Source: a virus (Duplodnaviria; Heunggongvirae; Uroviricota; Caudoviricetes). From it: a stretch of DNA of 64,000 nucleotides. The position numbers were made by a program, and so were the translations under genes. The DNA lies in the IMG/VR virus record IMGVR_UViG_3300029258_003331. One strand, 5' to 3'. The notes beneath the pieces were generated by a model, which did not search any database, was not told the DNA's origin, and saw only the letters and a program-made list of their open reading frames with translations. Below, piece after piece: positions 2,398 through 48,510 of the stretch (position 1 is its first letter; each line of letters opens with the position of its first letter).

Positions 2398-2407
2398 GGG
2401 AGGCACA

Positions 2408-2836: not shown

Positions 2837-2839
2837 GAC

Positions 2840-3699: not shown

Positions 3700-3729
3700 G
3701 GGCGGTCAAAATCTGGGAAGGGAGGTATC

Positions 3730-4275: not shown

Positions 4276-4284
4276 GTCAGGATC

Positions 4285-4428: not shown

Positions 4429-4481
4429 TTGGGTTTCTCCTTGTTCTGAGGTGGCGTTTTACGGACCTGGGCTCCTTTCGA

Positions 4482-5865: not shown

Positions 5866-5930
5866 TTATTTGATATTTCGGCTTTCAATGGAGTTTGAAG
5901 GATTTGCATCTTTCGTGAGAGGAGAGAGCC

Positions 5931-8525: not shown

Positions 8526-8548
8526 GATTCTGCAGACGGAGGAAAAGG

Positions 8549-8965: not shown

Positions 8966-8978
8966 TGGAGATTGTGGC

Positions 8979-32515: not shown

Positions 32516-32938
32516 ATGAGGAACGCCAGGAGAGTAATTCTGATCATTGGCACCGTGTTGACGTTTGTATTGGGGACGAACAGCACCGTTGCGAAAGAGA
32601 AGCGTCGTGCTGTCTATGTGACTGTGGTGGCGACGGCTTATTGCCCATGCGAAAAGTGCTGCGGAGAAAACGCTGACGGATTGACGGCTACAGGCACCGA
32701 TGCGTATAAGGCTGGTGTTGCGGTTGACCCGGGGACGTTTCCAGAGGGTTTTCCACTAGGAACACACTTTGACATCCCTGGTTATAATCGCGGACCAAAC
32801 GGAAATGGCTCGTGGATACGGGCGGATGATACGGGTCGGGCGATTCAAGGGACGCAAATTGACGTGCGTTTTAGAACACACCAGGAGGCGAAGGAATGGG
32901 GGCGCAGAAAGATCAAAGTCCGAGTGTGGCTGAGATAG
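32516..32938 (+). CDS. Secreted 3D-domain (MltA/YabE-like) putative peptidoglycan hydrolase (140 aa)
   Basis: Signal-peptide-like N-terminus. TAYCPCEKCCG…VAVDP…FPLGT…ADDTG…QIDV reproduces the three conserved Asp residues of the 3D domain. Confidence 0.75.
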   Translation: MRNARRVILIIGTVLTFVLGTNSTVAKEKRRAVYVTVVATAYCPCEKCCGENADGLTATGTDAYKAGVAVDPGTFPEGFPLGTHFDIPGYNRGPNGNGSWIRADDTGRAIQGTQIDVRFRTHQEAKEWGRRKIKVRVWLR

Positions 32939-33389: not shown

Positions 33390-35252
33390 ATGAGCGCCAC
33401 AACGACGAAACACAGCAAGAAGAATGCTCGCTATGTTGAGCGGCAAAAACAACTCAAAGCCGTTCAGGAGGTCGAGCGTGCCCTCAAAGTAATCATCCCA
33501 CACATGTGCCGGGACGGTAGGGTAACCATCAAGCATGTGGCTCCCGGCAATCCCCCTTGTGCCAATGTGAAAACCCGCACCATTTTCATGCCGCCACTCA
33601 ACGGTCTACAGGATCTTATGTTGGCACGGGCTTACTACTATCACGAGGTACTCCACATTGCTCACAGCCATCTCTCGGAGTCTCAGTGGGAGGAAATCCG
33701 TGAGAACAAGGCTCTGAAGACAATTTTGAATTCTCTGGATGATTACCGAATTGAAGCGAAGGGTGCAAGAAAATACGAAGGCTGCCGGGTGGTTTTCAAC
33801 TGGAGCCGGGACTACCACAACAAGAAAATTGCAGGACAAGTGCAACGTGGGGAAACCGTTGAGATTCCACTTTGGGAAGCCGCATGCGCCATGGAGATAA
33901 TGTGCAAGGGGGCGCGGTTGGCATGGCGCGCTGAGGGGCTCGCGGCAGAGTACATCAGCGCTGCCTATGAGACATACCAAGAGGTGCGTGGAGCAGAATC
34001 CACAGGGGATTGCCTGGTGATCGCCAGAAAGATTTACGACATCATTAAGGCAATAAAGAAAGAGCAGCAAGGACAAGGGGAACAAGGGGAACAAAAGGGA
34101 CAACAAGAGGGACAACAAGAGGGACAACAAGAGGGACAACAAGAGGGACAACAAGAGGGACAACAAGAGGGACAACAAGGGAAGGAGACAGCAACAGCGG
34201 ACCCCAGGGAAGGCGAGAGTACAGACAACGAAACAAGTGGACAGGTCGAAAACACGAAGGATGATCGAACAGACGAAGAGGTTGCTGGTGCGCTTGAGAA
34301 GGAGGCAGAAGGCGAGGACCTGGGAGAATTCCTGCGGCGCGAACTTGAAGCGCAAATCGACGAAGTTCCCGAGGCAGATCGTCGCTATCGCAGTATTAGG
34401 GAAAACGACGCATACGAGGTGCCCGATAGCACCAGTGTGGCTCAGTTCAACGCAGTCCGCGAAGAAGTGGCAAACAGCATTATGGGTATCAGTCGAGCAC
34501 TGGACCAGGCTCTCCGCACACTTAGTCGCTCTCGTAAGGAACAATACATGCGACGCGGAAAACTTGACATGCGGCGGCTTGTGGATGCGGCAGCCGGATT
34601 GGACAAACGGGTCTTTTACCAGGTTCGAGACGGTGAGAAATTGGATACAGCGGTAGTCATTATTGTGGACGAAAGCGCTTCGATGTCTGCTTCACGATAC
34701 GCCATGCAGCGGCTTGTTGCGGCGTTGGGGGAGACCCTGAACAAACTGGGGGTTCGCTTTGAGATTGTCGGAAGTACCACGAAATACTTTGGCGGCGAAA
34801 TTCCCAGAAAGTTACTAATTCCGGGCTATGATCGAACAAACCCTCTCAGGTTGCGTATTTATAAGACCTTCACCGAGAGATGGGAAGCCGTCAAAACACG
34901 CATAGTTCGCATTTCAGCCTTCAAGCACAATGTGGACTGTGAGGCAATTGAGATGGCTGTCGCGCGCTTGTCTACGTGCCGAGAGCGCCGTAGGATCATT
35001 TTCAGTTTGAGCGATGGTTGTCCCGAAGCAGGACATAACAACGAGCAGGAAATGGGTCAGTTTCTCAAGTACGTTTGTGAGCGCAGTCGAAGAGCGGGAG
35101 TCGAGGTATATGGGTTCGGTGTGCGCACAATAGAACCGAGGAAGTTTTACGGGAGGGATTATTTTGTCTACCTGAAAGATGAGCGACAAATGGGACAAGA
35201 TTTCTTCCGTCGGTTTGCGGACATCATCACAAGAGGTCGTTTCAGGGCGTAG
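33390..35252 (+). CDS. Putative metallopeptidase (HExxH) – vWA-domain protein, CobT/DUF2201-like (620 aa)
   Basis: GAGACCGGTTATAGG motif 29 nt upstream. YYYHEVLHIAHSH in the N-domain. (QEGQ)n low-complexity linker. VVIIVDESASMSAS MIDAS motif in the C-terminal vWA fold. Confidence 0.9.
   Translation: MSATTTKHSKKNARYVERQKQLKAVQEVERALKVIIPHMCRDGRVTIKHVAPGNPPCANVKTRTIFMPPLNGLQDLMLARAYYYHEVLHIAHSHLSESQWEEIRENKALKTILNSLDDYRIEAKGARKYEGCRVVFNWSRDYHNKKIAGQVQRGETVEIPLWEAACAMEIMCKGARLAWRAEGLAAEYISAAYETYQEVRGAESTGDCLVIARKIYDIIKAIKKEQQGQGEQGEQKGQQEGQQEGQQEGQQEGQQEGQQEGQQGKETATADPREGESTDNETSGQVENTKDDRTDEEVAGALEKEAEGEDLGEFLRRELEAQIDEVPEADRRYRSIRENDAYEVPDSTSVAQFNAVREEVANSIMGISRALDQALRTLSRSRKEQYMRRGKLDMRRLVDAAAGLDKRVFYQVRDGEKLDTAVVIIVDESASMSASRYAMQRLVAALGETLNKLGVRFEIVGSTTKYFGGEIPRKLLIPGYDRTNPLRLRIYKTFTERWEAVKTRIVRISAFKHNVDCEAIEMAVARLSTCRERRRIIFSLSDGCPEAGHNNEQEMGQFLKYVCERSRRAGVEVYGFGVRTIEPRKFYGRDYFVYLKDERQMGQDFFRRFADIITRGRFRA
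34064..34181 (+). repeat. 12-bp coding tandem repeat (GGGACAACAAGA) x7, preceded by degenerate copies
   Basis: Encodes the (QEGQ)n linker of the HExxH-vWA protein. Confidence 0.85.
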
Positions 35253-35258
35253 GAGTAC

Positions 35259-35828
35259 ATGATGGCGCTTAACAAGATATGCCACTACAGAGGAGGCAGC
35301 AGCAACAAGACATATCTCGTCTATGTCATCAAAGTGACTGACGGTGAATATCGAGTTGGTGGTAAGTGGGGAAGGACTGGAACTGCCCTCCACCAACAGA
35401 TTAAGCACGTCACGCAGACGTTCCAGGAAGCGCAAGACAAGGCTCTGCAATTGTTCCGCAGCAAGATAAAAAAAGGTTATCAGAACATCGAAGATCCCGA
35501 CTACGATGGTCCGCTAACATTTGCGCGTATGTCGGAATACCTGGAACATGATATTGAGGCAGAGCAGGATAGCGACGAAACGGATAACAATGAAGCGGTA
35601 GTAGACGGGGCAGTTCTATCTGGCAGGAAACCTGTGCCCGTACCCCAGAATGGTGAGGATATAGTTGTCATGTGTCTTGACAACACGGGGATGGAGGACA
35701 ACTTCAGCAGCGGCGTTACCTACGTGGTCGAGAATGAGATTGACGAGGAGATGTTTGTGGTCTCGGATAAGCGCGGGAGGGAAATCGAGTGTTATCGTGA
35801 CCGTTTTCGCGTGGTGGTGGAAGAATGA
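35259..35828 (+). CDS. WGR-domain protein (189 aa)
   Basis: KTYLVYVIKVTDGEYRVGGKWGRTG…ALQLFRSKIKKGY matches the WGR (Trp-Gly-Arg) domain consensus. Acidic C-terminal half. Confidence 0.8.
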   Translation: MMALNKICHYRGGSSNKTYLVYVIKVTDGEYRVGGKWGRTGTALHQQIKHVTQTFQEAQDKALQLFRSKIKKGYQNIEDPDYDGPLTFARMSEYLEHDIEAEQDSDETDNNEAVVDGAVLSGRKPVPVPQNGEDIVVMCLDNTGMEDNFSSGVTYVVENEIDEEMFVVSDKRGREIECYRDRFRVVVEE

Positions 35829-36214
35829 GCACAGGTGCAAGAAAACTCAAAGAAATTGCCCGCCGGAGACATAAGAAGCGCGAAGCCACGAACCTGGCAG
35901 AGCGATGTGGTTTCGAGTCTAATTGTCCTGACTGCCGGAATTGGGCGAAGAGTGAATCGGGCGAGCATTGCCGCGCGTACTCTGCGGGCGAAAGGAGACC
36001 CGTTGGCTGCCCTCATTTTGAAAGAAATATGGTAGATAGACGAGTGCGCTGCATCAACAACGAAGGCATCGCGGAAAGGTTCACTGTGGGAGCGGTCTAC
36101 GATGCCGCTTTTTACTATGATGACGATGAAGAGTATTTGCGAGTAACCGATAACCAGGGTGTTCCGGTTGATTGCGATTGGGAACAGTTTGAAGCAGCAG
36201 GGGAGCCGAAATGA
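35825..36214 (+). CDS. Hypothetical Cys-rich protein (129 aa)
   Basis: ATGA overlap. C-terminal module RCINNEGIAERFTVGAVYDA…D is repeated in the next gene. Confidence 0.7.
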   Translation: MSTGARKLKEIARRRHKKREATNLAERCGFESNCPDCRNWAKSESGEHCRAYSAGERRPVGCPHFERNMVDRRVRCINNEGIAERFTVGAVYDAAFYYDDDEEYLRVTDNQGVPVDCDWEQFEAAGEPK

Positions 36215-36864
36215 AGTTCATGCGATGTACCGCGCTTACGACCGAAGGCGAGTTTACAGTAGGTCGTATCTACGCGGTAAAAGATGAGATGGAAACAGAC
36301 GCGAAAACAGACGATAGGTTCATGATTGTAGATGATAACGACGAGCGTTTGAAGATGAAATACAGTGACCGGTGTTTCGAGAGGGTGATGACCGTCTATG
36401 GGGTCTGGGTGTGCGAGGATGGCAACTTTGACGCTGGAGAGGTGTTGTCCATAACGGGCGTAGATGGACAGTTTTTGGAGGTTGCCGGATACGGATATTT
36501 TGGCGGTGATTGCATTGAACTGCTTGACGCCACGAATCTGCGACCGGGGATTGTTGTCTGCGACGAAGAGAATGGGCAATGGCGTAAGGTGAGTCGCGTA
36601 GATGAGGATTTCAACGTCTCTATCGACGGGAATCCAGAGGAATTTAGGTCGGTTGCCGGATTCTCACTTGCGGTAGTAGACGGTGCGGTAGTGGATTTTC
36701 CTGTTTTGTACTGCATCGACGCGAACGGAAAGCCGGGAGAACTTACCGTGGGAGAGTCGTATCTTCCGGTGGCAAGAGAGGGTGCTATCGTGACATTGAA
36801 AAATGATGCTGGCGAGGAAAAAGGCTACGGCATGGACAGGTTTTCAAAAAAGAGAAAAAAATAA
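36211..36864 (+). CDS. Hypothetical protein with 3-4 repeats of a small RC-x4-EG-x-FTVG-x-Y module (217 aa)
   Basis: ATGA overlap. Internal repeats are visible in the protein sequence. Confidence 0.75.
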   Translation: MKFMRCTALTTEGEFTVGRIYAVKDEMETDAKTDDRFMIVDDNDERLKMKYSDRCFERVMTVYGVWVCEDGNFDAGEVLSITGVDGQFLEVAGYGYFGGDCIELLDATNLRPGIVVCDEENGQWRKVSRVDEDFNVSIDGNPEEFRSVAGFSLAVVDGAVVDFPVLYCIDANGKPGELTVGESYLPVAREGAIVTLKNDAGEEKGYGMDRFSKKRKK

Positions 36865-36887
36865 GATTTTTGGGCGGCAAATGGAGA

Positions 36888-36904
36888 ATGAGACCGGTTA
36901 TAGA
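36888..36904 (+). promoter_or_regulatory. Conserved ATGAGACCGGTTATAGA element, copy 7
   Basis: 31 nt upstream of ATG 36934 (AAA+ ATPase). Confidence 0.5.
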
Positions 36905-36933
36905 TGTAGGCGCACTCAAGAGAAGGGAACGAG

Positions 36934-38169
36934 ATGCCCACAAAAGCCAGTCTTACAGATGAGGAGCAACGAGTAGTCGAGGCAGTCAAAAAACTCGTTG
37001 CTGAACACGGAACTGTTGAGGTGGGGTGGGACGATCCTGTTGTTGCCGACCACTTTGACGTACTCCGGAAATCCAAAGTTCGTCGCTGTCTTGTCAAAGG
37101 GGCAGACAGCATCGTTGTGGACATTTACGACACGACGAAAACTGTCCGGCTCTTTGCCATCTCGGGAACTCACTCAGAGGGGCGACAAAAAGAACGAGGC
37201 AAGAAAAGGACGTCCAAAAAGAAGATTCAGCACACCTACATCAAGCCACGCCTGCATCAGCGCATGAAAAAACTCATTCAGAGCCCTTCGTCCTTGGTGG
37301 TGTGCGGCGTGGGTCCGACCGGGTGTGGGAAGACCACACATATGCGGCTGATGGCTGAAGAATTGAACATGGAACTAGAACTCATCAACTGCAAGCGGGA
37401 CATGGACACCGCTTCGTTTATTGGCGAGAAAACCATTGAGGTAGACGAGAAGACGGAACAGAGTATCATCAAATTTCTCGAAGGACCTGTCATCCGCGCC
37501 ATGAAGTGCGGTCTTGACGAAAAAGGCAACGAAGTTGGGAATCCAGCCCTCCTGGTTGTTGACGAATTTCCGATGATACCGAGTTGGATTGCCATAGGGT
37601 TGAATAACCTGCTTGACAACTTCAGTCCACGGCGGCAGATCCGGGTTGACGCTGATGGCGCTCGGGTAGTAACGAGCCACAGTGGATTCCGGATTGTGTT
37701 GCTGGGCAATACGATTGGGAGGGGGATCCTCAGTACGCGGGATGCAGGCTACGTGGCGCAGGGAGACGCACTAGACGACAGTACCCTTGACCGTATTGAC
37801 GCGATTTTTCACTACGGGTATAACCGCCGCGCTGAAGAATCGATCTTGCGAGAAAAGATCGGCAATGACAGCATGGTCCGCAAGTTGCTCCGGTTCCGTG
37901 ACGCCATACGGAATCTCAAACGACAGGGAGAAGTGACAACCCCATTCTCAACGCGCCTCATCGTGAGCGTTTGCGACCTCTACCGGGAATACGACGAAGA
38001 TATCGCTTGGGCGTTGCATGACGCGGTCTTTGGGAAACTTGTGGATGACAGTCCAGATCCGAATGTTCCCGGCGGCGAACTGGCTGTGTACAATGAGCAG
38101 GCAATGCAAATCTTCGGTATTGACGTGCTGAAGAGTGCGGCGGACGATTCCGACATGGATTACGTTTGA
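36934..38169 (+). CDS. AAA+ ATPase, MoxR/CobS-like (411 aa)
   Basis: GAGACCGGTTATAG motif 31 nt upstream. Walker A VCGVGPTGCGKTT. Walker B LLVVDEFPM. Confidence 0.9.
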   Translation: MPTKASLTDEEQRVVEAVKKLVAEHGTVEVGWDDPVVADHFDVLRKSKVRRCLVKGADSIVVDIYDTTKTVRLFAISGTHSEGRQKERGKKRTSKKKIQHTYIKPRLHQRMKKLIQSPSSLVVCGVGPTGCGKTTHMRLMAEELNMELELINCKRDMDTASFIGEKTIEVDEKTEQSIIKFLEGPVIRAMKCGLDEKGNEVGNPALLVVDEFPMIPSWIAIGLNNLLDNFSPRRQIRVDADGARVVTSHSGFRIVLLGNTIGRGILSTRDAGYVAQGDALDDSTLDRIDAIFHYGYNRRAEESILREKIGNDSMVRKLLRFRDAIRNLKRQGEVTTPFSTRLIVSVCDLYREYDEDIAWALHDAVFGKLVDDSPDPNVPGGELAVYNEQAMQIFGIDVLKSAADDSDMDYV

Positions 38170-38193
38170 TTGAACTCCAGCCTTGGGGAAATC

Positions 38194-38691
38194 ATGAAGA
38201 GAGACAGATACGCAATTTACGAGATGATGGGAAAAATGGTGAATTTTCGTCTTCCGCGCGCGCGAACAAACAAGCCGGTGGAGGGCGTGGTTGATAGCGT
38301 CTATCGCGACGTGGTGAATAAGCAAATCGAAATTGAAATTGGTCAAGTTCGCTACGTCTTCCGTGAGCCTGACTCTGTCATTTACTTGGAGGAAGACGCT
38401 TCTTTGGTCTTCGTATACGGTGACGAAGAGGACCCAACAGACGAGGAATTCTTCGAGGCGCTCAAAACTGCGTCGGGAAAAGGAAGTGGGGTAGACGCCG
38501 CCTTGAGGGAGTTGGAACGGGAAAAGCAGCACATCTTTTTTTCGTTGTTTGCTGCGCCTCCCCGGAATACCCGCAGGAATAGGGGTCGCGGTTCTTCGGG
38601 GCGCGCCAGGAATATCGGAGCATCAAAAACGGCGCGAAAAGATAAAAAGCGAAAGGAGAGCAACCAGAGAAAGGGGAAACAAAATGGCTAA
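38194..38691 (+). CDS. Hypothetical protein with highly basic R/K-rich tail (165 aa)
   Basis: GGGGAAATC then ATG. The table start is a TTG at 38170. Confidence 0.6.
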   Translation: MKRDRYAIYEMMGKMVNFRLPRARTNKPVEGVVDSVYRDVVNKQIEIEIGQVRYVFREPDSVIYLEEDASLVFVYGDEEDPTDEEFFEALKTASGKGSGVDAALRELEREKQHIFFSLFAAPPRNTRRNRGRGSSGRARNIGASKTARKDKKRKESNQRKGKQNG

Positions 38692-39541
38692 GCGGATTGA
38701 AGGAGAGATCATTGGCTACCAGGTCAAAGCCCAGTTGACAACGACGGTAATCAGTGCGGACCTTGTCAAGGCGGCGGCTGCCAAACACAATCTTCCCCTT
38801 GGCTATCTCTGCATCCCATCCAAGAAACGTGCGACGGCTCGTGCTGCTAACGAAGCCGCCAAGACTCATCGGCGCTTTCGTGATCACCTGACGCGCTCGG
38901 TTGCGAATAACCCCGAAAAAGCAAGTTGGTGTATCCTAGACGAGCAACATGACGAAAGCCATGACCGCAATTACTATCATCAGGGTGCGACCATTCGTTT
39001 CGACAAAAACAGCGGGTGCGTTACGGCGGAGGGGAACGAGGCGATGGTGCAGCGTTTCTGGACGTACCAGGAGAAATACGAAAACGGCTTAACTACTAAC
39101 GACTTGCGCAGTTTTCTCTATCGCGTTGTGCGTCGCTTCTGCAATGGCGTTGGGCTTGTACCCACTGGCGGTCTCTACTTTGTGCCGGCTTCCAAGTTGC
39201 CTGTCCTGCAGTCCATGGATGCTTTTTTGAGGGAATTGTGCGTCGGTCGGCTTTGGTATGAGCCAAAGGTGGACTGCCGCGAGACGATGGAGTGGCTGTG
39301 GGACTCCGCAAAGCGTGAGGTGACGTCCCAGATAAACAAGATCATGTCTCAAGTTGCGCAAATCAGCAAACGCGAGAGTTCCCTCCAGCGGAAAAGCGGG
39401 GAACTTGGCGAACAGAACGCACTGCTGGAAGCCTATTCCGAACTCACTGGATTCGGAGAAGAGGCGGAAGAAATCTCAGCAACTATTGAGGATGCAATCA
39501 AGACGGTGACGGAGCGCATTTCCGAATTGGTCGTTGTTTAG
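38684..39541 (+). CDS. Hypothetical protein (285 aa)
   Basis: AAAGGGGAAACAAA then ATG. 8-nt overlap with the upstream gene. Confidence 0.75.
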   Translation: MAKRIEGEIIGYQVKAQLTTTVISADLVKAAAAKHNLPLGYLCIPSKKRATARAANEAAKTHRRFRDHLTRSVANNPEKASWCILDEQHDESHDRNYYHQGATIRFDKNSGCVTAEGNEAMVQRFWTYQEKYENGLTTNDLRSFLYRVVRRFCNGVGLVPTGGLYFVPASKLPVLQSMDAFLRELCVGRLWYEPKVDCRETMEWLWDSAKREVTSQINKIMSQVAQISKRESSLQRKSGELGEQNALLEAYSELTGFGEEAEEISATIEDAIKTVTERISELVVV

Positions 39542-39701
39542 GTTGCCTCTACAGATCCCAAGCCGGGAGCCTATTTGGTCGTAACCACAAAGTTAGTGTG
39601 GCTTTACAGGAGAAGGATAGGGCGTGACGGAAGTCGAGAAAGAGGGCACTCCCGGGCGAATTTTTCGTGCGGTTTTATTTTTCGCTCAATTTTCTCTTTC
39701 G

Positions 39702-39710
39702 TTGGTATAA
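39702..39710 (+). promoter_or_regulatory. Extended -10 promoter TTGGTATAATGG
   Basis: Abuts the table ATG 39714. Coordinates may be off by 1. Confidence 0.45.
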
Positions 39711-39713
39711 TGG

Positions 39714-40463
39714 ATGACAAGGCGACGCGCTGATAGTGGTGCGCTGGTTGAAAAATGGAAGGCGGAACTTGTGGATGTTTCAATGGTAGAAGGGATTCTC
39801 AAAGGGCGACGGACGACTTTGACCCGGCTTCAGATTGAGAACCAAACGCTCGACCGCCAGATTGCACAGCACGTGGAAAAGGTGAAATCGCGCGTGTCTC
39901 AACTCGAAATGGGACAAGAAGCCCTACAGTTCCTAGAGAACGTGGCTAACAGTCGTCGAGGGGCGATGAAGGCGCAAATTGAAAATGTTGTCACGGAAGC
40001 CTTGTCGTTTATCTACGGGGACACCTATCGCATCGAGTTGGTTTACGACGTGAAAAACAACCGGAGTTTTATGGAAATTGAATTGGTGAAGGAAACACCC
40101 CAAGGTCCTGTCCGGAGGCAGATGGATGGTTTTGGCGGCGGTGTTTCAGACACCATCAGCGTGCCTCTCCGTCTTTTGGTTCTTCTCGCGTCACGGCAAA
40201 CTGATCCCGTCTGCATTCTGGATGAGTGCTACAAACACATGGATTTGACGCGCGTAGACAGGGTTGCCGAGTTTATGTGCGACGTTTCACATCGCTTGGC
40301 TTTGCAGGTTATCATGCTGTCGCACCACGTGGCAATGCATGAAGTGGCGGATTCTGCTTGGCACGTGACGGATAAAGACGGTACCTCGGTCGTGCGAATG
40401 ATAGATGTCAGCGAATTTATCGACGAAGAAGGGGAGGCAACAAAGAGAGATGGCGAAAATTAG
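39714..40463 (+). CDS. SMC/Rad50/RecN-like ABC-ATPase C-terminal-half-like protein (249 aa)
   Basis: Signature-like GFGGGVSDTIS, Walker B ILDE, D-loop and H-loop (IMLSHH). No Walker A. Start uncertain because TGGTATAAT abuts the table ATG; GTG 39771 is an alternative. Confidence 0.7.
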   Translation: MTRRRADSGALVEKWKAELVDVSMVEGILKGRRTTLTRLQIENQTLDRQIAQHVEKVKSRVSQLEMGQEALQFLENVANSRRGAMKAQIENVVTEALSFIYGDTYRIELVYDVKNNRSFMEIELVKETPQGPVRRQMDGFGGGVSDTISVPLRLLVLLASRQTDPVCILDECYKHMDLTRVDRVAEFMCDVSHRLALQVIMLSHHVAMHEVADSAWHVTDKDGTSVVRMIDVSEFIDEEGEATKRDGEN

Positions 40464-40941
40464 AACAGCGAGTGTGGATGATGATGTGACGAGGTTGGTC
40501 GATGAGGGGGCGCAACTCGACGCAGAAAGCAAAAAGCACCAAGCGCGCTTGAAAGAAATTAAGGAGGAATTGACAGGCGCTGTTTCTTTTGAGGAAGGCG
40601 AGAGCAGCGTGCGCGTAGCCGGAGAGAACGACAGCGCGGTGGTTACGTGTCGGAAGTCCGTGAGTCTTGGTTTCGACGGGGCAGAGGATGAGGAACGGTT
40701 CAGGAACGTCTTTGAAGGGGAAAAATTCAGCACTGCAGTCGGTAGCCAAGTTGTTGTTCGCGTAGCACCTGGGAAGATGGAGTCCCTTTTGGACTTTCTC
40801 GGTGAAAACAACTACGGATACGAGGTAAACTGGAGTCTGAGGGCGCAGGATGTAGTGGCGGTTAACTCTCCGGAGGCGAAGGCTATCTTGGAGAAGGCAA
40901 CGAAGGTAAAAACGACGACTGCGGTCAAATTTGAGTGGTAA
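40450..40941 (+). CDS. Hypothetical protein (163 aa)
   Basis: ATG 40450 overlaps the upstream gene by 14 nt. Confidence 0.6.
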   Translation: MAKIRTASVDDDVTRLVDEGAQLDAESKKHQARLKEIKEELTGAVSFEEGESSVRVAGENDSAVVTCRKSVSLGFDGAEDEERFRNVFEGEKFSTAVGSQVVVRVAPGKMESLLDFLGENNYGYEVNWSLRAQDVVAVNSPEAKAILEKATKVKTTTAVKFEW

Positions 40942-40969
40942 CAACCGGAAAGTGAATGAAAGGAAGGGA

Positions 40970-42271
40970 ATGGGAACGAACGACGACAAGCGGCTCAACG
41001 AGTACGAGCGCACCTACGAAGGCTGCTATGGTCTACAGGTCAAGGCGGATAGGCTTGTTGACTTTCTGACTACGAATTTTCGCTTTAACGACATCGAAGA
41101 AGAAGCCGGCAATCCGCGCATTGCTCAGTGTGTGTGGGGACATCCAGGGACGGGCAAGACCTCAATTATCAAGCAACTCCGCGAAACGCCGGTAGAATGG
41201 CGTGGAAAACAATACCCTGGATGGGACGTGCATGACGTTCCGATTGCGCAGTTCGAGGAGATGGGCGACCTTCACGGCATTCCTATGGATAGCCTCATGA
41301 TGCGCCGGAGACGAGACGGCGATTCCGAGAGCGAAGAACAATGGGTGCCGCAGAACGAGATGACCATTGCGGCGTTCCGAGACGACGGCTGGGAAGTAGA
41401 CACCAGCATTCAGCCCCGTACCATCATGGCTCCTCCTGACTGGGTTCCTTTGAAACCAGGACCTGCGATTTTGCTGTTGGATGACTGGAATCGCGCCAGC
41501 ATTCGCATCATCAAGGGTATCATGCAACTTCTGCAAAACTACGGCATGGTATCGTGGTCGCTCCCGGCGGGCTGCAATATTGTTTTGACTGGCAACCCGG
41601 ACGAACAGAATTACCTGGTCACAACCATTGACAAAGCCATTCTAACGCGCATCGAGCACGTCACGCTGGTTGAAGATGCCAAACTGTGGGCAGAGTGGGC
41701 AGCGAAGCAAAAACTTGACCATCGCGGGATTTCGTGGGTGTTATATCAGCCCGAAATGATGCACGGCAAGGAACGGACGAATCTGCGGACGCTTTCTCAT
41801 TTCTTTCGGAAACTGACAGCCATTGGCAACCTTCAGAACGAGGACGCTCGGAAGCAGGCAATGCTCCATGCTCATTCGTTGTTGGACGAAGAAACTGTCA
41901 CCGCTTTTATCGTCTTCTGCACTCGCAAGATGGAGGACATAGTCGAGCCCGAAGATATTTTGGATGGTCGGACGGACGTAGCCGCACGGTTGTGTGAACT
42001 GATGTCCAGCGACAAACACGAACCGCGTAGTGACATTCTCGGTGTCATGATAGAGCGCTTGTTCGGGACCATGGTTGACCCAAGCACCAAGCAAACTCCC
42101 GAACGCATTGAGAATTTTCAGAGGTTTATCACCAACCAGCACATCCCTGAAGATTGTCGTCATGCGCTTTGCAATCGTCTCTCCAGGCGTGCAGATGCGG
42201 ACGGTAGAAATCAGAAGTGGCTTCTCAATAATTCAGCATTGCGCGGGTTGATCTTAGAAATGTTTGACTAA
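40970..42271 (+). CDS. AAA+ ATPase, MoxR-like (433 aa)
   Basis: GAAAGGAAGGGA then ATG. Walker A VWGHPGTGKTS. Walker B ILLLDDWNRAS. Confidence 0.9.
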   Translation: MGTNDDKRLNEYERTYEGCYGLQVKADRLVDFLTTNFRFNDIEEEAGNPRIAQCVWGHPGTGKTSIIKQLRETPVEWRGKQYPGWDVHDVPIAQFEEMGDLHGIPMDSLMMRRRRDGDSESEEQWVPQNEMTIAAFRDDGWEVDTSIQPRTIMAPPDWVPLKPGPAILLLDDWNRASIRIIKGIMQLLQNYGMVSWSLPAGCNIVLTGNPDEQNYLVTTIDKAILTRIEHVTLVEDAKLWAEWAAKQKLDHRGISWVLYQPEMMHGKERTNLRTLSHFFRKLTAIGNLQNEDARKQAMLHAHSLLDEETVTAFIVFCTRKMEDIVEPEDILDGRTDVAARLCELMSSDKHEPRSDILGVMIERLFGTMVDPSTKQTPERIENFQRFITNQHIPEDCRHALCNRLSRRADADGRNQKWLLNNSALRGLILEMFD

Positions 42272-42297
42272 GAGAGCACGACAGCAAGGAGGCGGGG

Positions 42298-43107
42298 GTG
42301 GACAGAGTACAAATTGACAGTCTTAATGAACTGCCATACAACCCGCGAAAAATCAGTTCGCGGAACCTTGAGAACCTTAAAGCATCAGTGAGAGAAGGAA
42401 GCAACGCATTTACAGAAGAAGAACGCGACGAGGGGTTTCGGTTGGCTATGACGGTGACGGTAAATCGCATGGGCAACCGTGTTGTGGGAGGTCACCAACG
42501 ACTAAAGGCGCTGAAGGCTCTCGGGCAAGACTGGGTGTGTGGCGCAGATGTTACCTGGGTTTCGTTGGAGCCGAATTCTGTTGCCGAAAAGGCGCTGAAT
42601 GTCGCCTTAAACAACCGTGAGGCACAAGGAGACTTCATCCAGGAAGAATTGGATGACCTCCTGGCTAGTATCAAAACAGAAGATTCGGTACGCTTTGAGA
42701 GTTTAGGATTCGAGGATATCGACGCTGACTTGAGTTTTCTGGATAGCGAAGCCGAACCGCCAAGGAAACCCGCGAAAAATGAAGAAGCGGCTGGCGAAGA
42801 TGCCCCGGTTTCCAATAAGTTCAAAGGGGAACCAGGTAGCCAGGCAATACACACCAGCGATGAGGCAGACGGTGTTGGTGACGTTGTGGACGGGGATGTG
42901 GTAGAGCCGCCAACGCCTCCGGTGGATGAATCGGAAATGCCTAGCGAACAACTTTTCCCTATTTCCTATGCTGTAACGGTACAACAGCGCGAACATGTTT
43001 TATCGGCTATTACCGTGGCAAAGGAAAAATACGGGTTCAAGACAAACGCTGAAGCCTTGTCATTTGTTTGCGAGGAGTACGTTGCAAAGGAGGAAGAAAA
43101 TGACTGA
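42298..43107 (+). CDS. ParB/Srx-like N-terminal-domain protein (269 aa)
   Basis: LPYNPRKI…VGGHQRLKALKALG matches the ParB-like nuclease/NTP-binding box (GxHRxxA). Acidic C-terminal half. Confidence 0.8.
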   Translation: MDRVQIDSLNELPYNPRKISSRNLENLKASVREGSNAFTEEERDEGFRLAMTVTVNRMGNRVVGGHQRLKALKALGQDWVCGADVTWVSLEPNSVAEKALNVALNNREAQGDFIQEELDDLLASIKTEDSVRFESLGFEDIDADLSFLDSEAEPPRKPAKNEEAAGEDAPVSNKFKGEPGSQAIHTSDEADGVGDVVDGDVVEPPTPPVDESEMPSEQLFPISYAVTVQQREHVLSAITVAKEKYGFKTNAEALSFVCEEYVAKEEEND

Positions 43108-43477
43108 AACAGGAAAGCCCGGAGGATTTCTGAAGGGATTTGGTTCGGGGGCAATCATCGTCCTGGTAGTCGCCGTTGGATACATCTTCGGTTTTGACGA
43201 GAACCCAAAAGACGCTGTGACGGACGCAGTGCAGGAAGCCTACGTCGTTGCTGCGCTCGGGGAGAAAAGCGTGGCGCAACTCAAGGCGACGTTGCCCGAC
43301 CTGAGCCCGAAGCAGGAGGAGAATCTCAAGAAAACCGAAGAAGCGCTGGGCAACGTAAGAGCGGAGGCGGAAAGAATCGCCTTGTTGTTCAAGATTGCTT
43401 TGCCCCCACTTCCCGAAGAAACTGCGCTGCCTGCCGAACCGAGTGCGGAAACTGTTGCTCCCGTTCCGAGTGATTAA
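43100..43477 (+). CDS. Single-pass membrane protein (125 aa)
   Basis: AAGGAGGAAGAAA then ATG. TM helix GSGAIIVLVVAVGYIFGF. Followed by a strong terminator. Confidence 0.7.
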   Translation: MTETGKPGGFLKGFGSGAIIVLVVAVGYIFGFDENPKDAVTDAVQEAYVVAALGEKSVAQLKATLPDLSPKQEENLKKTEEALGNVRAEAERIALLFKIALPPLPEETALPAEPSAETVAPVPSD

Positions 43478-43484
43478 GGAACCT

Positions 43485-43528
43485 GTCTCGGCTGCTTCAC
43501 TTTTTTGTGGGGCAGCCGAGATTTTTGT
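43485..43528 (+). terminator. Rho-independent terminator
   Basis: CTCGGCTGC…GCAGCCGAG 9-bp stem, T-rich loop, then ATTTTTG. Confidence 0.7.
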
Positions 43529-43547
43529 TTGATTTAAGGTAGCCAGG

Positions 43548-43556
43548 TGGTATAAT
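43548..43556 (+). promoter_or_regulatory. Extended -10 promoter, TTGATT-16nt-TGGTATAAT
   Basis: Follows terminator 43485..43528. Drives 43761 through a roughly 200-nt repeat-containing leader. Confidence 0.55.
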
Positions 43557-43646
43557 GCGGGAGACTCGGTGCTGAATTTTGATGAGACGTTGTCATTTTA
43601 AGGAGGGAGAAAGATGACCTGAAATTGTGGTGCGCGGTACTGCCGT

Positions 43647-43741
43647 GTGAAATCATTCGCAAAGGATGCGTTTGAGAAAGCAGGCAGGTAATACTACTCT
43701 GCGAAATCATCCGCAAAGGGCGGTTGAGAAAGCAAGTAGCG
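43647..43741 (+). repeat. Two roughly 40-nt imperfect direct repeats in the 5' leader of gene 43761
   Basis: G(T/C)GAAATCAT(T/C)CGCAAAGG…TTGAGAAAGCA(G/A)G…AG at about 43647-43688 and 43701-43741, about 85% identical. Confidence 0.6.
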
Positions 43742-43760
43742 TGTGAGAGAGGAAAAAATC

Positions 43761-44723
43761 ATGCCTAGCGACACTGTACCCACTCTTGACTCGTTGAATG
43801 AAAAGGTTGTCGAAGCCGCGAAGGTTTTAGAGAGCATTCCTGGCTTTTGCGATGCACTCGATACTGACGGCACCCTGGCTGAGCGCACACAGGCATACGT
43901 CTGGGCGCGTTTGGCACAACTTGGCATTTATCAAGACGAGAATTCACATGATCTCCTGATGTCGGATGATTGCCAGGAGGGAGAGGTTCGGCGTACCTTT
44001 TGCGAGAATGGCGACCCTAACGTCCCACCTGTGCGATTCAAGCGCATGTGGTCAATTCTTCGTGGCGGCGAGGCGAAGCATGAGCCTGAGAGGGCATCCG
44101 ATGTCTCAGATGCCCTCCTTGAGGCGTTGGGTAAGACTCGTCCAATCGAGCATTGGAGAGACACAGAACTCGTAGCAGCCTATGGTTTTGACTGCGAACT
44201 TACTATTGTGGATGCCCTAAGAAAGCGGAGTCAAAACCGTCCGTTCTTGGTTTTCAATCAGGACGGGAGTGTGGACGTAGAGACAAGCTGCCGAATGCTC
44301 CGTGAGACGCGCCGGCGTGAGATGCCGGTCATGTATCAGGTGTCCGATAGCCTGAAACGGCTGTATCGTGCCGGGGAGTTTCCAGGTGTCTTGGACCTCC
44401 GGTGTCCTTTTCACGATGTCATTCTCACGGATGGTTACTGTGACGAGTCAAAGATGACGTGGGAAGGCGTGGACTACGAATGTATGCAGTTTGCGCGAAT
44501 TGCCCAGGAGGAAGGCGAAGCCGGACAAAGCAAGCCTGACATTCGCCAATTCATAGCCACGGCGCGCGGAGAGGGTTTGTCGGGTCTGTCTCGTGATTAT
44601 CCGCATGTCGCACTCATTTTTCAGGAGCGCAAAGAAGCGGACAATCTGCCAAATCTCAAAGTCCGCCTATCGGAGCCGAACCAGGCTAATTCTGCCGACC
44701 CCTTCGGAAAGAGGCGCTTTTAA
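43761..44723 (+). CDS. Hypothetical protein (320 aa)
   Basis: GAGAGAGGAAAAAATC then ATG. 5' UTR contains two roughly 40-nt direct repeats. Confidence 0.8.
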   Translation: MPSDTVPTLDSLNEKVVEAAKVLESIPGFCDALDTDGTLAERTQAYVWARLAQLGIYQDENSHDLLMSDDCQEGEVRRTFCENGDPNVPPVRFKRMWSILRGGEAKHEPERASDVSDALLEALGKTRPIEHWRDTELVAAYGFDCELTIVDALRKRSQNRPFLVFNQDGSVDVETSCRMLRETRRREMPVMYQVSDSLKRLYRAGEFPGVLDLRCPFHDVILTDGYCDESKMTWEGVDYECMQFARIAQEEGEAGQSKPDIRQFIATARGEGLSGLSRDYPHVALIFQERKEADNLPNLKVRLSEPNQANSADPFGKRRF

Positions 44724-44762
44724 CGACTGAATGACCAGCGCAACTGACCGAAAGGAGCGAAA

Positions 44763-45830
44763 ATGGTAGCATGGGATAAGCCTCTTCCGTGGGTTGAGGA
44801 CTGCAAAGATGTTGTGATGCGTGAGATGCGCTTGGACGGGTTTGTGGCAAAGATCATGTTTGCCGAGAGACTAGAAGGGAAATCTACTCACGGATTACCA
44901 CCAGGGAGGGCTGCCGAAGTTGTGCAGGTGGACTGTCTGCCGGGAGTGCCGGAGTCCTGGGTGCGCGGGAGGGGTTCCTACGTTGTTCCTGTGGAGACGG
45001 GAACAGGAATCTGGTTCGACTGGAGAAATGGTGCCGAGAGGGACATGAACACGGCAGTTGTTCCCTCAGTCAAAGGAATGAATCCGTTGACTGGGATGCC
45101 GCTGGATGGAATGTACCTCGAAAGTTACGTGGAAAAATGTCCCAAGCACGGCACCCGATTCAAGGGTGGTGGTCGTTTTTGCGAAGAATGTGGTTGGGAA
45201 TGGCCACCGCAAGGATATATCACCTACGAATCAACGATGTGGTGGGATGGTTTCAGGCAACCGGATGGCACCGTTCGCCAGTTTTTCTTCACAGACGAAG
45301 ACAGGCGCGATATCGCTTCGGCATTGATTGGCAAAGAGAACACAGTCCCTGCTTTTGGTTTTGCCTTCTACTGCCCCAAAAATCCCCGTACACCGCCGCC
45401 TCGTATGACCAGGGGTGTTGGCTGGAAAAAGTCTTTCGTACCCCACGAAGTCAATTATGTCGGTTCCTCCGTCAAGTATTCCCACAGGCAGCCGGATGTG
45501 TACTCGCAAACGGTTGATATGGGCGTTGCCAGTTTCACGGCACAGAGTTTGGCGGGGGCACAGGACAGCGACCTCGTCAGGACAAGCAGCATAAGTTGCA
45601 GCACGAACGAAAAGCGTTCTGCGTCGGTAAGCATCGGAGCAGGCGCAAAGATTCGTCAAGGATTGATGGTCGACAGCCTGGGTTTGGAGGGTTGGCAGGA
45701 AAGACCCTCTGCCGTTATTCGTCTCTACTTCTGTTTCGAGGAGGAGTTCAGGAAAATCGTGAAAAAGGGCGGCATCAAGGAATTCAACTGCAGCAGCGAG
45801 GGGATGCTAGAGGGGCTTCCCGTTGGTTAA
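44763..45830 (+). CDS. Hypothetical protein with CPKHG…CEECGW zinc-ribbon-like motif (355 aa)
   Basis: AAAGGAGCGAAA then ATG. Terminator downstream. Confidence 0.8.
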   Translation: MVAWDKPLPWVEDCKDVVMREMRLDGFVAKIMFAERLEGKSTHGLPPGRAAEVVQVDCLPGVPESWVRGRGSYVVPVETGTGIWFDWRNGAERDMNTAVVPSVKGMNPLTGMPLDGMYLESYVEKCPKHGTRFKGGGRFCEECGWEWPPQGYITYESTMWWDGFRQPDGTVRQFFFTDEDRRDIASALIGKENTVPAFGFAFYCPKNPRTPPPRMTRGVGWKKSFVPHEVNYVGSSVKYSHRQPDVYSQTVDMGVASFTAQSLAGAQDSDLVRTSSISCSTNEKRSASVSIGAGAKIRQGLMVDSLGLEGWQERPSAVIRLYFCFEEEFRKIVKKGGIKEFNCSSEGMLEGLPVG

Positions 45831-45856
45831 GGGATATTTTTCGAAGAATTTTCAAC

Positions 45857-45886
45857 AAAGGCCGCTTTCGGGCGGCCTTTTTTCAC
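45857..45886 (+). terminator. Rho-independent terminator
   Basis: AAAGGCCGC-TTTCG-GCGGCCTTT followed by TTTTC. Confidence 0.75.
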
Positions 45887-45903
45887 GAATTTCGGGGAGC
45901 AAT

Positions 45904-45912
45904 TGGTATAAT
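45904..45912 (+). promoter_or_regulatory. Extended -10 promoter TTGGTATAATG
   Basis: Follows terminator 45857..45886. 21 nt upstream of ATG 45933. Confidence 0.55.
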
Positions 45913-45932
45913 GCATCTGTGGAGGACAAAAA

Positions 45933-46256
45933 ATGCGTCACCCAGCAGATGAGGGCGAAGATTGGACGGAGATATTTGGTAAGACTTTTTCCCATTCTGA
46001 GTTGAGGGAGGCGGCAGATTTTGGGGATGTCGTGCGGTCGTATGGGTTTGTAGAGTCAATGTTGTCTACCTTCATTCGCGAGAAGATGAAAGTGGGACAT
46101 CGCCTGTTTCTTATCCAGAACCTTAAGCCAAGCGAACTTGGTGTGATGGCGATGCGGGAGCCCGATGACAGGTTGGCTCACATTATCAGAGAGCGATGTA
46201 GCGAGATGCACCGTCAAGAAGAGGGCAGACAGTGTATCGTGCTACCGAGTGAATAG
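45933..46256 (+). CDS. Hypothetical protein (107 aa)
   Basis: TGGTATAATG promoter about 20 nt upstream, then GGAGGACAAAAA and ATG. Confidence 0.65.
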   Translation: MRHPADEGEDWTEIFGKTFSHSELREAADFGDVVRSYGFVESMLSTFIREKMKVGHRLFLIQNLKPSELGVMAMREPDDRLAHIIRERCSEMHRQEEGRQCIVLPSE

Positions 46257-46265
46257 TGGGAGACC

Positions 46266-47579
46266 ATGATGCCCGATATTAACGTGAAAAGAGAGGTGAT
46301 GCGGGGCTCGGTCGATTTGATTCGGCACAAGTTGTTTTACGGGCACATACTTCAACAGATACCCAAAGTGTATAATGCCGAAAAATGGGGAATACCGACC
46401 ATGGGAGTCGGGAAGGAAGCCAATGATCTCTTGATAAAACTTTGTGTAAACGAGCAGTTCGTGCGGGAAATTTGGAAAAGAGCCGCAAACAGCGAGCAGG
46501 CCAGACAATGGCTAGGCTGTATCCTGGAGCACGAGGTTTTACACATTGTCTTTGACCACCTGAGTCTCCAATTCTACGATAAAACACGCGGCGCTGTGGC
46601 TGTGGATTTGGCGGTCAATTCCTACCTTCCTGAGCAGCACCTCCCTCCTGGTTGTTGTTTTCCGAATGACTACAACCTTGCGCAGGGCAAAAGCGCCATG
46701 TGGTACTACACGCACTTGGTGGATAATGAGCACTACCAAAAGCAGTTGGCGGATGAAACACTGGCCGTTCATATGGGAAATCAAAAACAACAAAGCAAAG
46801 GAAAAGGCGGAAAACAGGGAATAGGCGGAAAACAGGGAAAACAGGAAGAACAGGGAAAAGGTGGAAAACAGGGAAAAGGTGGTGATCTGGATATGTCTGG
46901 GTCGCATGAAATGTGGGACCGAGCGGCGCAGGACCCATTGCTGAAGGAATTTTGCAAAGACCTCGTCAGCAAAGCCCGGGAACTCGTTGGTAAGGAGTAC
47001 GGTGACATACCAGGGGCGGTAATCGAGCAGATAGAGGATTTGTTCAAGAAAAGACGACCCATTGTCCCCTGGAATAAGGTGCTCCGGAACTTCGCCGCGA
47101 GTGCTACGGAATCAAGTTTGGATTACACGATGAAACGCGTAAGTAAGCGTTTCGGTACGCGACCGGGCACGCGAAAAGAAGACGTGCTCAACCTTGCCGT
47201 AGCCGTCGATACAAGCGGGTCAATTAGCGATTCGCAGTTGGTGTTGTTCTTTAATGAGGTTCGCTGGATATGGCGCAATGGTTCTATTGTGACCGTCTAC
47301 GAAGCCGACGCCGATATCCAGGCGGTCTACAAATTCAAGGGTAAGTTCACCGGAGAGATACATGGTCGCGGCGGTACGGACTTGGAACCGGTCTTGAAGG
47401 AAACAGAAGGAAAATACGACGCGCTTATTTATTTCACCGATTTTTATGCGCCTCACATCGACAGGCGGTATAATATTCCTATCTTGTGGGTGCTGACTAC
47501 CGAACTGACGCGTGACCGGTTTCCTTACAAGTGGGGAAGATACATCAAGATTGAAGATAATAAGGCAAAAGTTGCCTGA
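46266..47579 (+). CDS. Second putative metallopeptidase (HExxH) – vWA protein, DUF2201-like (437 aa)
   Basis: ILEHEVLHIVFDHL N-domain. (GKQG)n linker. VAVDTSGSISDSQ MIDAS in the C-terminal vWA. Same architecture as 33390..35252. Confidence 0.9.
   Translation: MMPDINVKREVMRGSVDLIRHKLFYGHILQQIPKVYNAEKWGIPTMGVGKEANDLLIKLCVNEQFVREIWKRAANSEQARQWLGCILEHEVLHIVFDHLSLQFYDKTRGAVAVDLAVNSYLPEQHLPPGCCFPNDYNLAQGKSAMWYYTHLVDNEHYQKQLADETLAVHMGNQKQQSKGKGGKQGIGGKQGKQEEQGKGGKQGKGGDLDMSGSHEMWDRAAQDPLLKEFCKDLVSKARELVGKEYGDIPGAVIEQIEDLFKKRRPIVPWNKVLRNFAASATESSLDYTMKRVSKRFGTRPGTRKEDVLNLAVAVDTSGSISDSQLVLFFNEVRWIWRNGSIVTVYEADADIQAVYKFKGKFTGEIHGRGGTDLEPVLKETEGKYDALIYFTDFYAPHIDRRYNIPILWVLTTELTRDRFPYKWGRYIKIEDNKAKVA
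46795..46900 (+). repeat. Degenerate 12-bp coding repeat (GGAAAACAGGGA)n
   Basis: Encodes the (GKQG)n linker of the second HExxH-vWA protein. Confidence 0.7.
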
Positions 47580-48015: not shown

Positions 48016-48510
48016 ATGGCAACACCTGAGCGGTTCGTAAGTCCTGCTGTCGCTGACATCATGGAGAAACACCTGCGGGCGTATCCGGAGGTCTTCGAGG
48101 GGTTCGACGTCAACGAGATAGTGTGCTTCCACTACAAAGGCAAAGAGGATACGCGTCGTCCTTTGAAGATTAAGCCCGTTCGCGACCCGTTTGACATGCT
48201 GGTTGACAAGGTTTACATCATCCAGGTGGCTGACGCGACTTGGAATGAGATGACGCCAACCCAACGTCATTTGGCTGTTTTTCATACGATGTGTGCTATT
48301 CCAGAAGGCGCATTTGACAAGGAAAGTAGGGAATACGGTAAGGTCAAAAAGCCTGACTACGAGTTGTTTGCGGAAGAATTCGCAGCCGCCGGAGGGGTGC
48401 CAAACTGGATGGAGAATCCGGAAGCCAAAGACCCCTTGGAGAAGAAAAAGAGCAGCACTCCTAAGCGCGCGGTGACGACAGCGGGGGTTGCTGCCGGGGC
48501 TACCGCGTGA
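48016..48510 (+). CDS. Hypothetical protein (164 aa)
   Basis: GAGGAGAAAAGGA then ATG. Confidence 0.7.
   Translation: MATPERFVSPAVADIMEKHLRAYPEVFEGFDVNEIVCFHYKGKEDTRRPLKIKPVRDPFDMLVDKVYIIQVADATWNEMTPTQRHLAVFHTMCAIPEGAFDKESREYGKVKKPDYELFAEEFAAAGGVPNWMENPEAKDPLEKKKSSTPKRAVTTAGVAAGATA

Follow-up and report, generated by a model that had tools for sequence, protein, structure and literature searches.

Two distinct families of MoxR-type ATPase and HExxH-vWA adaptor in one clade of large phages

Known pairs of motor and adaptor

Among the described systems closest to the genes discussed here is the CobSTN chelatase of Brucella melitensis (PDB 9uka series). Its adaptor, CobT, has an N-domain with a peptidase M48C-like fold that is docked on the small subdomain (lid) of the motor, CobS; this is followed by a disordered linker of ~90 residues and by a von Willebrand factor A (vWA) domain, with its "shaft" inside the CobS ring pore and its MIDAS (metal-ion-dependent adhesion site) face towards CobN (10.64898/2026.07.21.739949). 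NorQ-NorD, CbbQ-CbbO and RavA-ViaA are likewise pairs of motor and adaptor, in which the MIDAS is thought to hold the target; their roles are metal insertion or enzyme reactivation, and none of the NorD, CbbO and ViaA adaptors has been reported to carry a zincin with an intact HExxH motif. The subject of this paper is a set of two such pairs, that is, two MoxR-type AAA+ ATPases and two vWA adaptors with N-terminal HExxH motifs, encoded between positions 33390 and 47579 of a 64,000-nucleotide stretch of viral DNA (IMG/VR record IMGVR_UViG_3300029258_003331; the whole stretch is referred to below as the window). The presence of TerL (52987-54828) and portal (55484-57499) genes marks the window as phage DNA, which the IMG/VR relatives (contigs of 150-338 kb) also support. 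All the genes in 33390-47579 lie on the + strand.

Phages are already known to carry pairs of this kind. The cobS and cobT genes have been reported as core genes of the T4-like cyanophages, viral cobST clusters have been catalogued, and the "peptidase" annotation of the cyanophage cobT has been called a mistake (PMC8651126). A pair consisting of a MoxR ATPase and a metallopeptidase-vWA protein has been described in jumbo phages, and a part in virion assembly with proteolytic processing has been proposed for it (PMC7824862). The N4-like phages (Schitoviridae) have a pair of their own, to which we return below.

The families to which the four proteins of the window belong, the conservation of catalytic-type residues in the adaptors, their vWA fold and the linkage of the genes together carry the following reading, to which we assign a probability of roughly 0.55: the window encodes two independent, non-orthologous motor-adaptor pairs, each joining a MoxR-lineage AAA+ ATPase to a vWA adaptor with an M48-like HExxH zincin, and each pair is most likely an ATP-driven machine that remodels its target and cuts it.

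The CobT-like pair

The adaptor of the first pair (33390..35252, + strand; 620 aa) has the architecture of a CobT-type adaptor: an M48C-like N-domain, a disordered linker (here a Q/E/G repeat), a "shaft" segment that is conserved, and a MIDAS-bearing vWA domain. Its HExxH motif (aa 85-89, nt 33642-33656) is part of the segment HEVLHIAHSH (aa 85-94), and its MIDAS reads DESAS (aa 427-431, nt 34668-34682). Pfam recognizes CobT_C/vWA at 7e-16 and CobT at 8e-6, which is at the gathering threshold. Brucella CobT in the PDB is matched at 2.5e-20 by the protein itself and at 4.9e-61 by the profile of its viral family; the latter match takes in the N-domain as well as the vWA domain and the segment before it, and a profile of the viral N-domains finds the crystallised Brucella CobT_N chain 21vu_H at 2.9e-7. 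The shaft region can be aligned between phage and Brucella, and G390 and R396 are invariant in the phage family. The NCBIfam equivalog for CobT, TIGR01651, is not reached (87.9 bits, E 6e-25, as against a cut-off of 759). The top Foldseek match of an AlphaFold2 (AF2) model is the vWA domain of NorD in NorQD (E 4e-7); in this model aa 228-316 have predicted local distance difference test (pLDDT) scores below 50. The linker has a DNA counterpart: a 12-nt tandem repeat (34090..34179, + strand; 7.5 copies, 98% matches) encodes its QQEG units.

A homologue search with the N-domain alone returned zero matches and a full-length query returned 6, the repeat linker possibly dominating the shared words; the full-length search having yielded so few, the relatives were drawn from IMG/VR loci. 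The resulting viral set comprises 74 distinct proteins, 62 of them aligning across the HExxH region; counts of linkage refer to 73 distinct genes (IMG/VR and phage isolate records). HExxH is found in 61 of the 62 alignable proteins and DxSxS in 74/74. Both His and the Glu of the motif are invariant across N-domains whose overall identity is 13-43%, and N114, D118 and E122 are almost as constant. The aligned position reads S-M-A-L-R in Brucella CobT: to judge from this alignment, the phage CobT-like proteins keep the catalytic-type residues of a protease-like domain that has been turned into a docking module in the Brucella chelatase.

(A separate observation on the same domain: the viral N-domain profile also matches the anti-CRISPR protein AcrIIA26 (PDB 9zq6_B) over ~75 residues at E 1.1e-4; the match is centred on LNxxEDxxIE...EYxG, a motif that follows the HExxH helix and begins near aa 111 of the window's protein.)

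The motor of the first pair, ATPase1 (36934..38169, + strand; 411 aa), is a MoxR AAA+ protein of the CbbQ/GvpN/NorQ/CobS type. Its Walker A is GPTGCGKT (aa 127-134, nt 37312-37335) and its Walker B LLVVDE, and aa 303-372 form a CbbQ_C lid. Pfam AAA_5 is matched at 1.6e-11 (44.8 bits; cut-off 22), CbbQ_C at 2e-4 and phrog_249 at 5e-25; the PDB matches are Midasin, NorQ, CbbQ and CobS, and a cyanophage CobS is matched as well. The NCBIfam CobS family TIGR01650 is not reached (25.4 bits, as against a cut-off of 558.55), and GvpN scores higher (32.4 bits).

Linkage of motor and adaptor is the rule in this family. A CobS-like ATPase gene adjoins 54 of the 73 viral CobT-like genes and lies within 6 kb of 17 more (71/73 in total). 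It is directly downstream in 29 loci and directly upstream in 25. An earlier note on this DNA had attached meaning to the opposite gene order of the window's two pairs; with both orders this common among the viral loci, that signal vanishes.

The CobT-like profile matches the CobT of Roseobacter phage CRP-810 (genes gp06/gp07) at 5e-93 and, at 3e-19, the S-PM2 "peptidase" (genes S-PM2p122/p123), which stands beside CobS and contains HEVGH and DWSGS. By these matches the first pair belongs to the viral cobS/cobT family, as does the cyanophage "peptidase"-CobS pair. Identity to the cultured-phage versions is only ~24-28%, and the layout in the window differs from theirs: the viral cobS and cobT genes are adjacent or nearly so, while those of the window are 1.7 kb apart, with a WGR gene and two small repeat-domain proteins between them, an arrangement limited to the window's clade.

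The DUF2201 pair

The second adaptor (46266..47579, + strand; 437 aa) is a DUF2201 protein. Besides its EHExxH N-domain it contains a phage-specific insert of G/K/Q repeats, a basic segment that is conserved, and a vWA-like domain of short length. EHExxH occupies aa 88-93 (HExxH at nt 46530-46544) in the segment HEVLHIVFDH (aa 89-98), and the vWA motif reads DTSGS (aa 315-319, nt 47208-47222). It exceeds the gathering scores of both Pfam domains of the family (PF13203 + PF09967): DUF2201_N at 2.7e-11 (44.0 vs 23.2 bits) and DUF2201 at 5.9e-16 (59.2 vs 26.4 bits). It also matches phrog_1314. Over 500 homologues at E values of 1e-5 or lower come from metagenomes, with 47-100% identity among the 120 listed. 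In the 30 homologues that were aligned, EHExxH (E88, H89, E90, H93) and DxSxS are invariant (30/30).

The second motor, ATPase2 (40970..42271, + strand; 433 aa; the open reading frame, ORF, opens at 40931), is assigned to the MoxR/AAA_5 lineage by its Walker motifs and family profiles. Walker A (aa 57-64, nt 41138-41161; in GHPGTGKTS) and Walker B ILLLDD, followed by NRA, are plain, and phrog_1297 is matched at 4.7e-28. By itself the protein stays under the AAA_5 cut-off (14 bits), so that the lineage is assigned at the level of the family: 29 of 43 members match AAA_5, and the family (1,795 representatives) has a profile that matches the AAA domains of Midasin at 1.5e-23. With Walker A and B motifs, an AAA_5 match and a linked vWA gene, ATPase1 and, through its family, ATPase2 both have the marks of MoxR-lineage motors. 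The Walker A pattern GxxxxGK[ST] occurs in the 64-kb window in these two AAA+ genes only (ORFs of at least 70 aa).

Distant phages provide the linkage: an ATPase2-family gene is directly upstream of the DUF2201 gene in 11 of 12 distant IMG/VR loci. In the N4-like Vibrio phage pVa5, the ATPase2-family profile matches a "MoxR-like ATPase" at 3.7e-27 and the DUF2201-family profile a "metallopeptidase domain" gene at 9.6e-26. The second pair thus appears, from sequence matches and architecture, to be the pair of MoxR-like ATPase and DUF2201 protein that N4-like phages and jumbo phages have. The likeness to the jumbo-phage pair of Iyer et al. 2021 (PMC7824862) is one of architecture, drawn from the published description and not from sequence orthology with ASV44729.1 and ASV44728.2. 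Both pVa5 genes are matched by the families of the second pair; in the window's clade, in contrast, the two genes are separated (by 4 kb in the window itself), a Rad50-C-like gene precedes ATPase2 and a PhageMetallopep gene follows DUF2201.

Two side observations concern the reach of the family. One distant locus (IMGVR_UViG_3300037088_000812; 3-4460 and 8086-10639) holds two tandem pairs of ATPase and vWA-like protein, the weaker of which lacks HExxH; doubling of the module therefore also occurs outside the window's clade. A scan of bacterial and archaeal species-representative genomes with the DUF2201 alignment gave one vWA-only fragment and no clue to the host. The fragment is from a metagenome-assembled genome of Victivallales (JAZUCR010000449.1; ORF at 5851-6315 of the extracted locus): a vWA-like ORF of 154 aa with 50% identity to the DUF2201 C-terminal domain, without an N-terminal zincin and without an ATPase2-family neighbour.

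Two families, not two copies

The earlier note had described the locus as a duplicated module. The ORFs and the Walker, HExxH and DxSxS motifs on which it built can all be read in the translations; both ATPases are of the MoxR/AAA_5 lineage and each has a vWA partner whose N-terminal domain contains HExxH, as Pfam matches and conserved motifs agree; the profile searches that it had called for place CobT/CobT_C and AAA_5 on the first pair and DUF2201_N/DUF2201 on the second; and linkage of MoxR and vWA genes recurs in unrelated phages, as the counts above attest. Duplication is another matter. BLASTP aligns the two ATPases at E 0.04 only, and hhalign relates their families with 98.4% probability at 15% identity; they are members of one AAA+ lineage and parted long ago. 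The adaptors have still less in common: BLASTP aligns 31 residues at the HExxH helix, and profiles of the two N-domains align over 43-47 columns (the HExxH helix and the next helix) with an hhalign probability of ~30%, which is compatible with a shared zincin origin and no proof of it. A recent duplication, considered as an explanation for the resemblance, is ruled out by the BLASTP and profile comparisons; these are two anciently diverged families.

What of the three-part build that the two adaptors were said to share? The HExxH domain and the vWA domain are indeed conserved; the low-complexity linker of the DUF2201 protein is not. It is a GKGGKQ insert encoded by an 18-nt tandem repeat (46800..46879, + strand; 4.4 copies) and found in only 2/30 homologues, which makes it peculiar to the window phage and one relative. 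For the DUF2201 family the linker accordingly drops out as a shared third element. In both adaptor genes the linker is a young expansion of in-frame, nearly perfect tandem repeats in the DNA, and its length probably varies between strains. The motifs themselves are not chance occurrences, since HExxH is invariant in the aligned DUF2201 proteins and nearly so in the CobT-like ones, and DxSxS is invariant in the latter set.

How the pairs might work

The two AF2 models agree in predicting a helix, three strands and the HExxH helix in succession, which is how CobT_N has been described; in both adaptors the motif would thus lie on a helix placed after a small beta-sheet, as in M48-like zincins. 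The analogy to CobST and NorQD suggests the remainder of the proposed mechanism: a hexameric motor, a docked adaptor, a pore segment and a target held by the MIDAS. In outline, the ATPase would form a hexameric ring; the adaptor's N-domain would dock onto the ATPase lid, and the conserved segment just before the vWA domain would thread the ring pore; the MIDAS face of the vWA domain would grip a specific target protein by an acidic residue, and ATP-driven movement would then remodel this target. The fused zincin would finally cleave the exposed target, a step for which cellular CobT, having lost the motif, would not be equipped. The catalytic Glu and the two His are conserved so strictly as to suggest that the adaptor also cuts. 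The targets would probably be specific host or phage proteins, in the replication phase or in assembly; that one clade keeps two versions of the machine suggests separate targets.

A number of considerations weigh against this proposal. Complex formation, zinc binding, proteolysis and targets are all matters of deduction. For the third metal ligand there are candidates only (E117, D118 or E122 in the CobT-like protein, D114 in the DUF2201 protein). Fold searches with both adaptors returned outputs filled with vWA matches only, which leaves the zincin fold of the N-domains without confirmation from that side; the AF2 model of the CobT-like protein is mediocre (mean pLDDT 61.8), and the DUF2201 N-domain matches M48 peptidases at a non-significant E of 0.05-0.3. 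The cellular side of the HExxH comparison is represented by one CobT, that of Brucella. ATPase2 and DUF2201 genes lie 4 to ~35 kb apart in the clade, and their functional pairing there is argued from co-occurrence and from adjacency in distant phages. Lastly, Walker B of the ATPase2 family (aa 171-176) ends in Asp-Asp instead of Asp-Glu, with D171, D172 and R175 invariant in 43 sequences, which may mean unusual or slow ATP hydrolysis, or a switch.

A more ambitious generalization can be put forward tentatively, and we would not bet on it: that the viral CobS/CobT and MoxR/DUF2201 pairs constitute a class of their own among phage proteases, powered by ATP, working by "grip, remodel and cut", without relation to Lon, FtsH or Clp and aimed at specific host proteins (for instance of defence, nucleoid or replication), that the widely cited viral cobS/cobT have no B12 role, and that cellular CobT derives from such proteins by loss of the protease site.

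Alternative readings

Do the pairs cut at all? They might be chaperones without proteolysis, serving virion assembly or protein maturation in the way of the MoxR-vWA pair needed for tail development in the Acidianus two-tailed virus, and HExxH might do nothing beyond metal-binding and docking. The published proposal for the jumbo-phage pair (Iyer et al. 2021, PMC7824862) includes virion assembly, the clade's DUF2201 gene lies ~5 kb upstream of TerL/portal with its PhageMetallopep neighbour at most ~2 kb downstream, and cellular CobT_N is purely a docking domain; on the other side, the docking-only domain of Brucella has lost the catalytic Glu and both His, which are invariant across very divergent phage sequences. 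Moreover, the genes that surround the N4-like and S-PM2 pairs are those of replication and recombination and not of virion structure. We regard chaperones of this kind as unlikely, though they are the most serious competitor of the remodel-and-cut reading.

The second alternative takes the names cobS and cobT at face value: the first pair would be true auxiliary metabolic genes, whose products hijack the host's CobN and boost cobalt insertion and B12 supply, a hypothesis proposed in PMC8651126. The Pfam CobT/CobT_C assignments, the PHROG "cobalamin biosynthesis" and "porphyrin biosynthesis" families and the PDB matches to CobT, N-domain and shaft included, are what this idea would lead one to expect; the window's pair resembles CobSTN in the build of the adaptor, where sequence similarity is significant for either domain, and in the kind of motor, whose lid is of the CbbQ_C type, and the two elements that CobN touches in the CobSTN structure, the CobT_N beta-sheet and the MIDAS face, are present in the window's protein. 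The comparison with Brucella CobSTN also shows three differences. The scores are far under the equivalog cut-offs quoted above for CobT and CobS (GvpN outscoring the latter), and ATPase1, which matches NorQ and CbbQ, is no nearer to CobS than to them. The phage proteins have HExxH where Brucella has SMALR, and invariance of the motif is hard to explain in a domain that only docks. No CobN was found in the window: it has no CobN-sized gene with a Pfam match, the sole ORF above 800 aa (23536-26592) matching none. The family is, besides, spread over phages of many host groups. Metabolic genes are for these reasons improbable, and the sequence comparisons argue that the first pair is probably not a cobalamin-synthesis set and that the phage "CobS/CobT" label is probably wrong.

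Least probable of all is that the whole 14 kb forms one DNA-associated system (the WGR, Rad50-like and ParB-like proteins with both pairs) that, for example, strips or cuts DNA-bound proteins: several relatives show synteny for the run of CobT-like, WGR, ATPase1, DUF6744, Rad50-C-like and ATPase2 genes, the WGR domain is considered to bind DNA (PMC7824862), the S-PM2 pair lies between gp46/gp47 (Rad50/Mre11) and clamp genes and the pVa5 pair near a DNA polymerase gene, but the WGR and Rad50-like linkage is limited to the clade and missing from most viral cobST loci and N4-like pairs, the spacing of the components differs by tens of kb, and synteny is to be expected of any conserved core genes of related large phages and is no sign of a functional unit.

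The single remodelling or processing system over 33390-47579 that the earlier note had envisaged is not supported, for the same reasons: because the WGR and Rad50-like linkage is confined to the clade and the gap between ATPase2 and DUF2201 is variable, the span is better read as core synteny conserved within a phage clade, with two separate pairs inside it.

What is new, and what it means

Are these pairs, then, a discovery? Their function is, as the earlier note said, uncharacterised by experiment. The systems as such are not new: their architecture and occurrence in phages have been published, for the jumbo-phage pair (PMC7824862) and for the viral cobST clusters (PMC8651126). Finding both types of pair in one clade of large phages is a modest novelty; equally modest are the clade-specific WGR and Rad50-like neighbours and the contrast between viral and Brucella HExxH regions, which undermines the cobalamin annotation. 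This contrast has a practical side. Counts of auxiliary metabolic genes in marine viromes routinely include cobS and cobT; HExxH being near-universal in the M48-like-fold domain of the viral proteins and missing from the Brucella chelatase, one can argue that this metabolic annotation is an error and that the genes encode machines for processing proteins. The same comparison suggests that the cyanophage "peptidase" annotation was not mistaken after all. Cultured-phage models are at hand for both pairs: S-PM2 or Syn9 for the first, N4 or pVa5 for the second.

Genes between and around the pairs

The gene order common to the relatives is CobT-like, WGR, ATPase1, small ORF, DUF6744, Rad50-C-like, ATPase2, ..., DUF2201, PhageMetallopep, HNH-repeat, ..., TerL; two IMG/VR contigs, 3300029288_000063 and 3300022555_000010, contain both modules. 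Megablast of the 14-kb region against phage genomes returned zero matches, and a PADLOC scan assigned no defence system, yielding only weak generic matches (WGR_XIII, IetA P-loop, mad3 ABC C-terminus).

Directly after the CobT-like gene comes the WGR-domain protein (35259..35828, + strand; 189 aa), recognized by Pfam WGR at 1.6e-8, as the earlier note had anticipated, and ending in a domain of ~55 aa. Homologues of its N-domain stand beside CobT-like genes in four other loci, a linkage seen in the window's clade only. A MoxR ATPase (YehL), a vWA protein (YehP) and a WGR protein (MolR) are also found together in a bacterial locus, the yeh genes of E. coli, which is mentioned here as a lead and not as support. 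Between the WGR gene and ATPase1 are two small ORFs (35825..36214 and 36211..36864, + strand) that carry copies of the ~55-aa domain, whose pattern is roughly CxxxxG...F(T/S)xGxxY...V.D..G....C....F: it forms the C-termini of the WGR protein and of 35825-36214 (E 1e-7) and occurs twice in 36211-36864, a homologue of which is syntenic in two relatives. Further copies occur in several neighbouring ORFs of three related loci.

The DUF6744 protein (38549..39541, + strand, opening with TTG; probable start ATG 38681) is matched by Pfam at 7.5e-8. It heads a run kept in relatives: DUF6744, Rad50-C-like, a small ORF (40405-40941) and ATPase2, with synteny in five loci. The Rad50-C-like protein (39714..40463, + strand; 249 aa) is an ABC ATPase fragment resembling the C-terminal half of Rad50/SMC, in which a coiled coil, the signature motif and Walker B are present and Walker A is absent; it matches Pfam SMC_N at positions 147-217 of 220, in keeping with the SMC-like fragment named in the earlier note, phrog_15167 at 2.8e-27 and the NCBIfam Rad50 C-terminus at 2.6e-7. 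A search of the other window ORFs, down to 70 aa, found none that could provide its Walker A half. In six loci, all of this clade, such a gene is upstream of ATPase2, at distances from adjoining to ~2 kb.

Downstream of ATPase2 is a protein with a ParB/Srx-like N-terminal domain (42298..43107, + strand). The earlier identification of this protein finds support in PHROGs (phrog_9353 at 6.7e-20, phrog_620 at 1.4e-15) and none to speak of in Pfam (ParB_N, 0.06); the gene is found in three other loci and is tied to neither module. The PhageMetallopep (PF18894) protein (48016..48510, + strand; Pfam 2.3e-8) is a steadier companion, lying at most ~2 kb downstream of DUF2201 in 16/16 clade loci and present in two more. 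The window's copy lacks HExxH and reads HLAVFH, so that this zincin may be inactive or a variant.

Upstream of the CobT-like gene, at ~4 kb, lies a gene for an SPFH/Band 7 protein (28022-29125), which is also present in a related locus (L002, 2383-3324); in pVa5 an SPFH-domain gene sits between the MoxR-like ATPase and DUF2201 genes. Nearer to the CobT-like gene, 32516-32938 encodes a small protein that has a 3D domain (RlpA-like) and begins with a hydrophobic N-terminus; it has 63% identity to its counterpart in another relative (L003); in both phages one small ORF separates the 3D-domain gene from the CobT-like gene.

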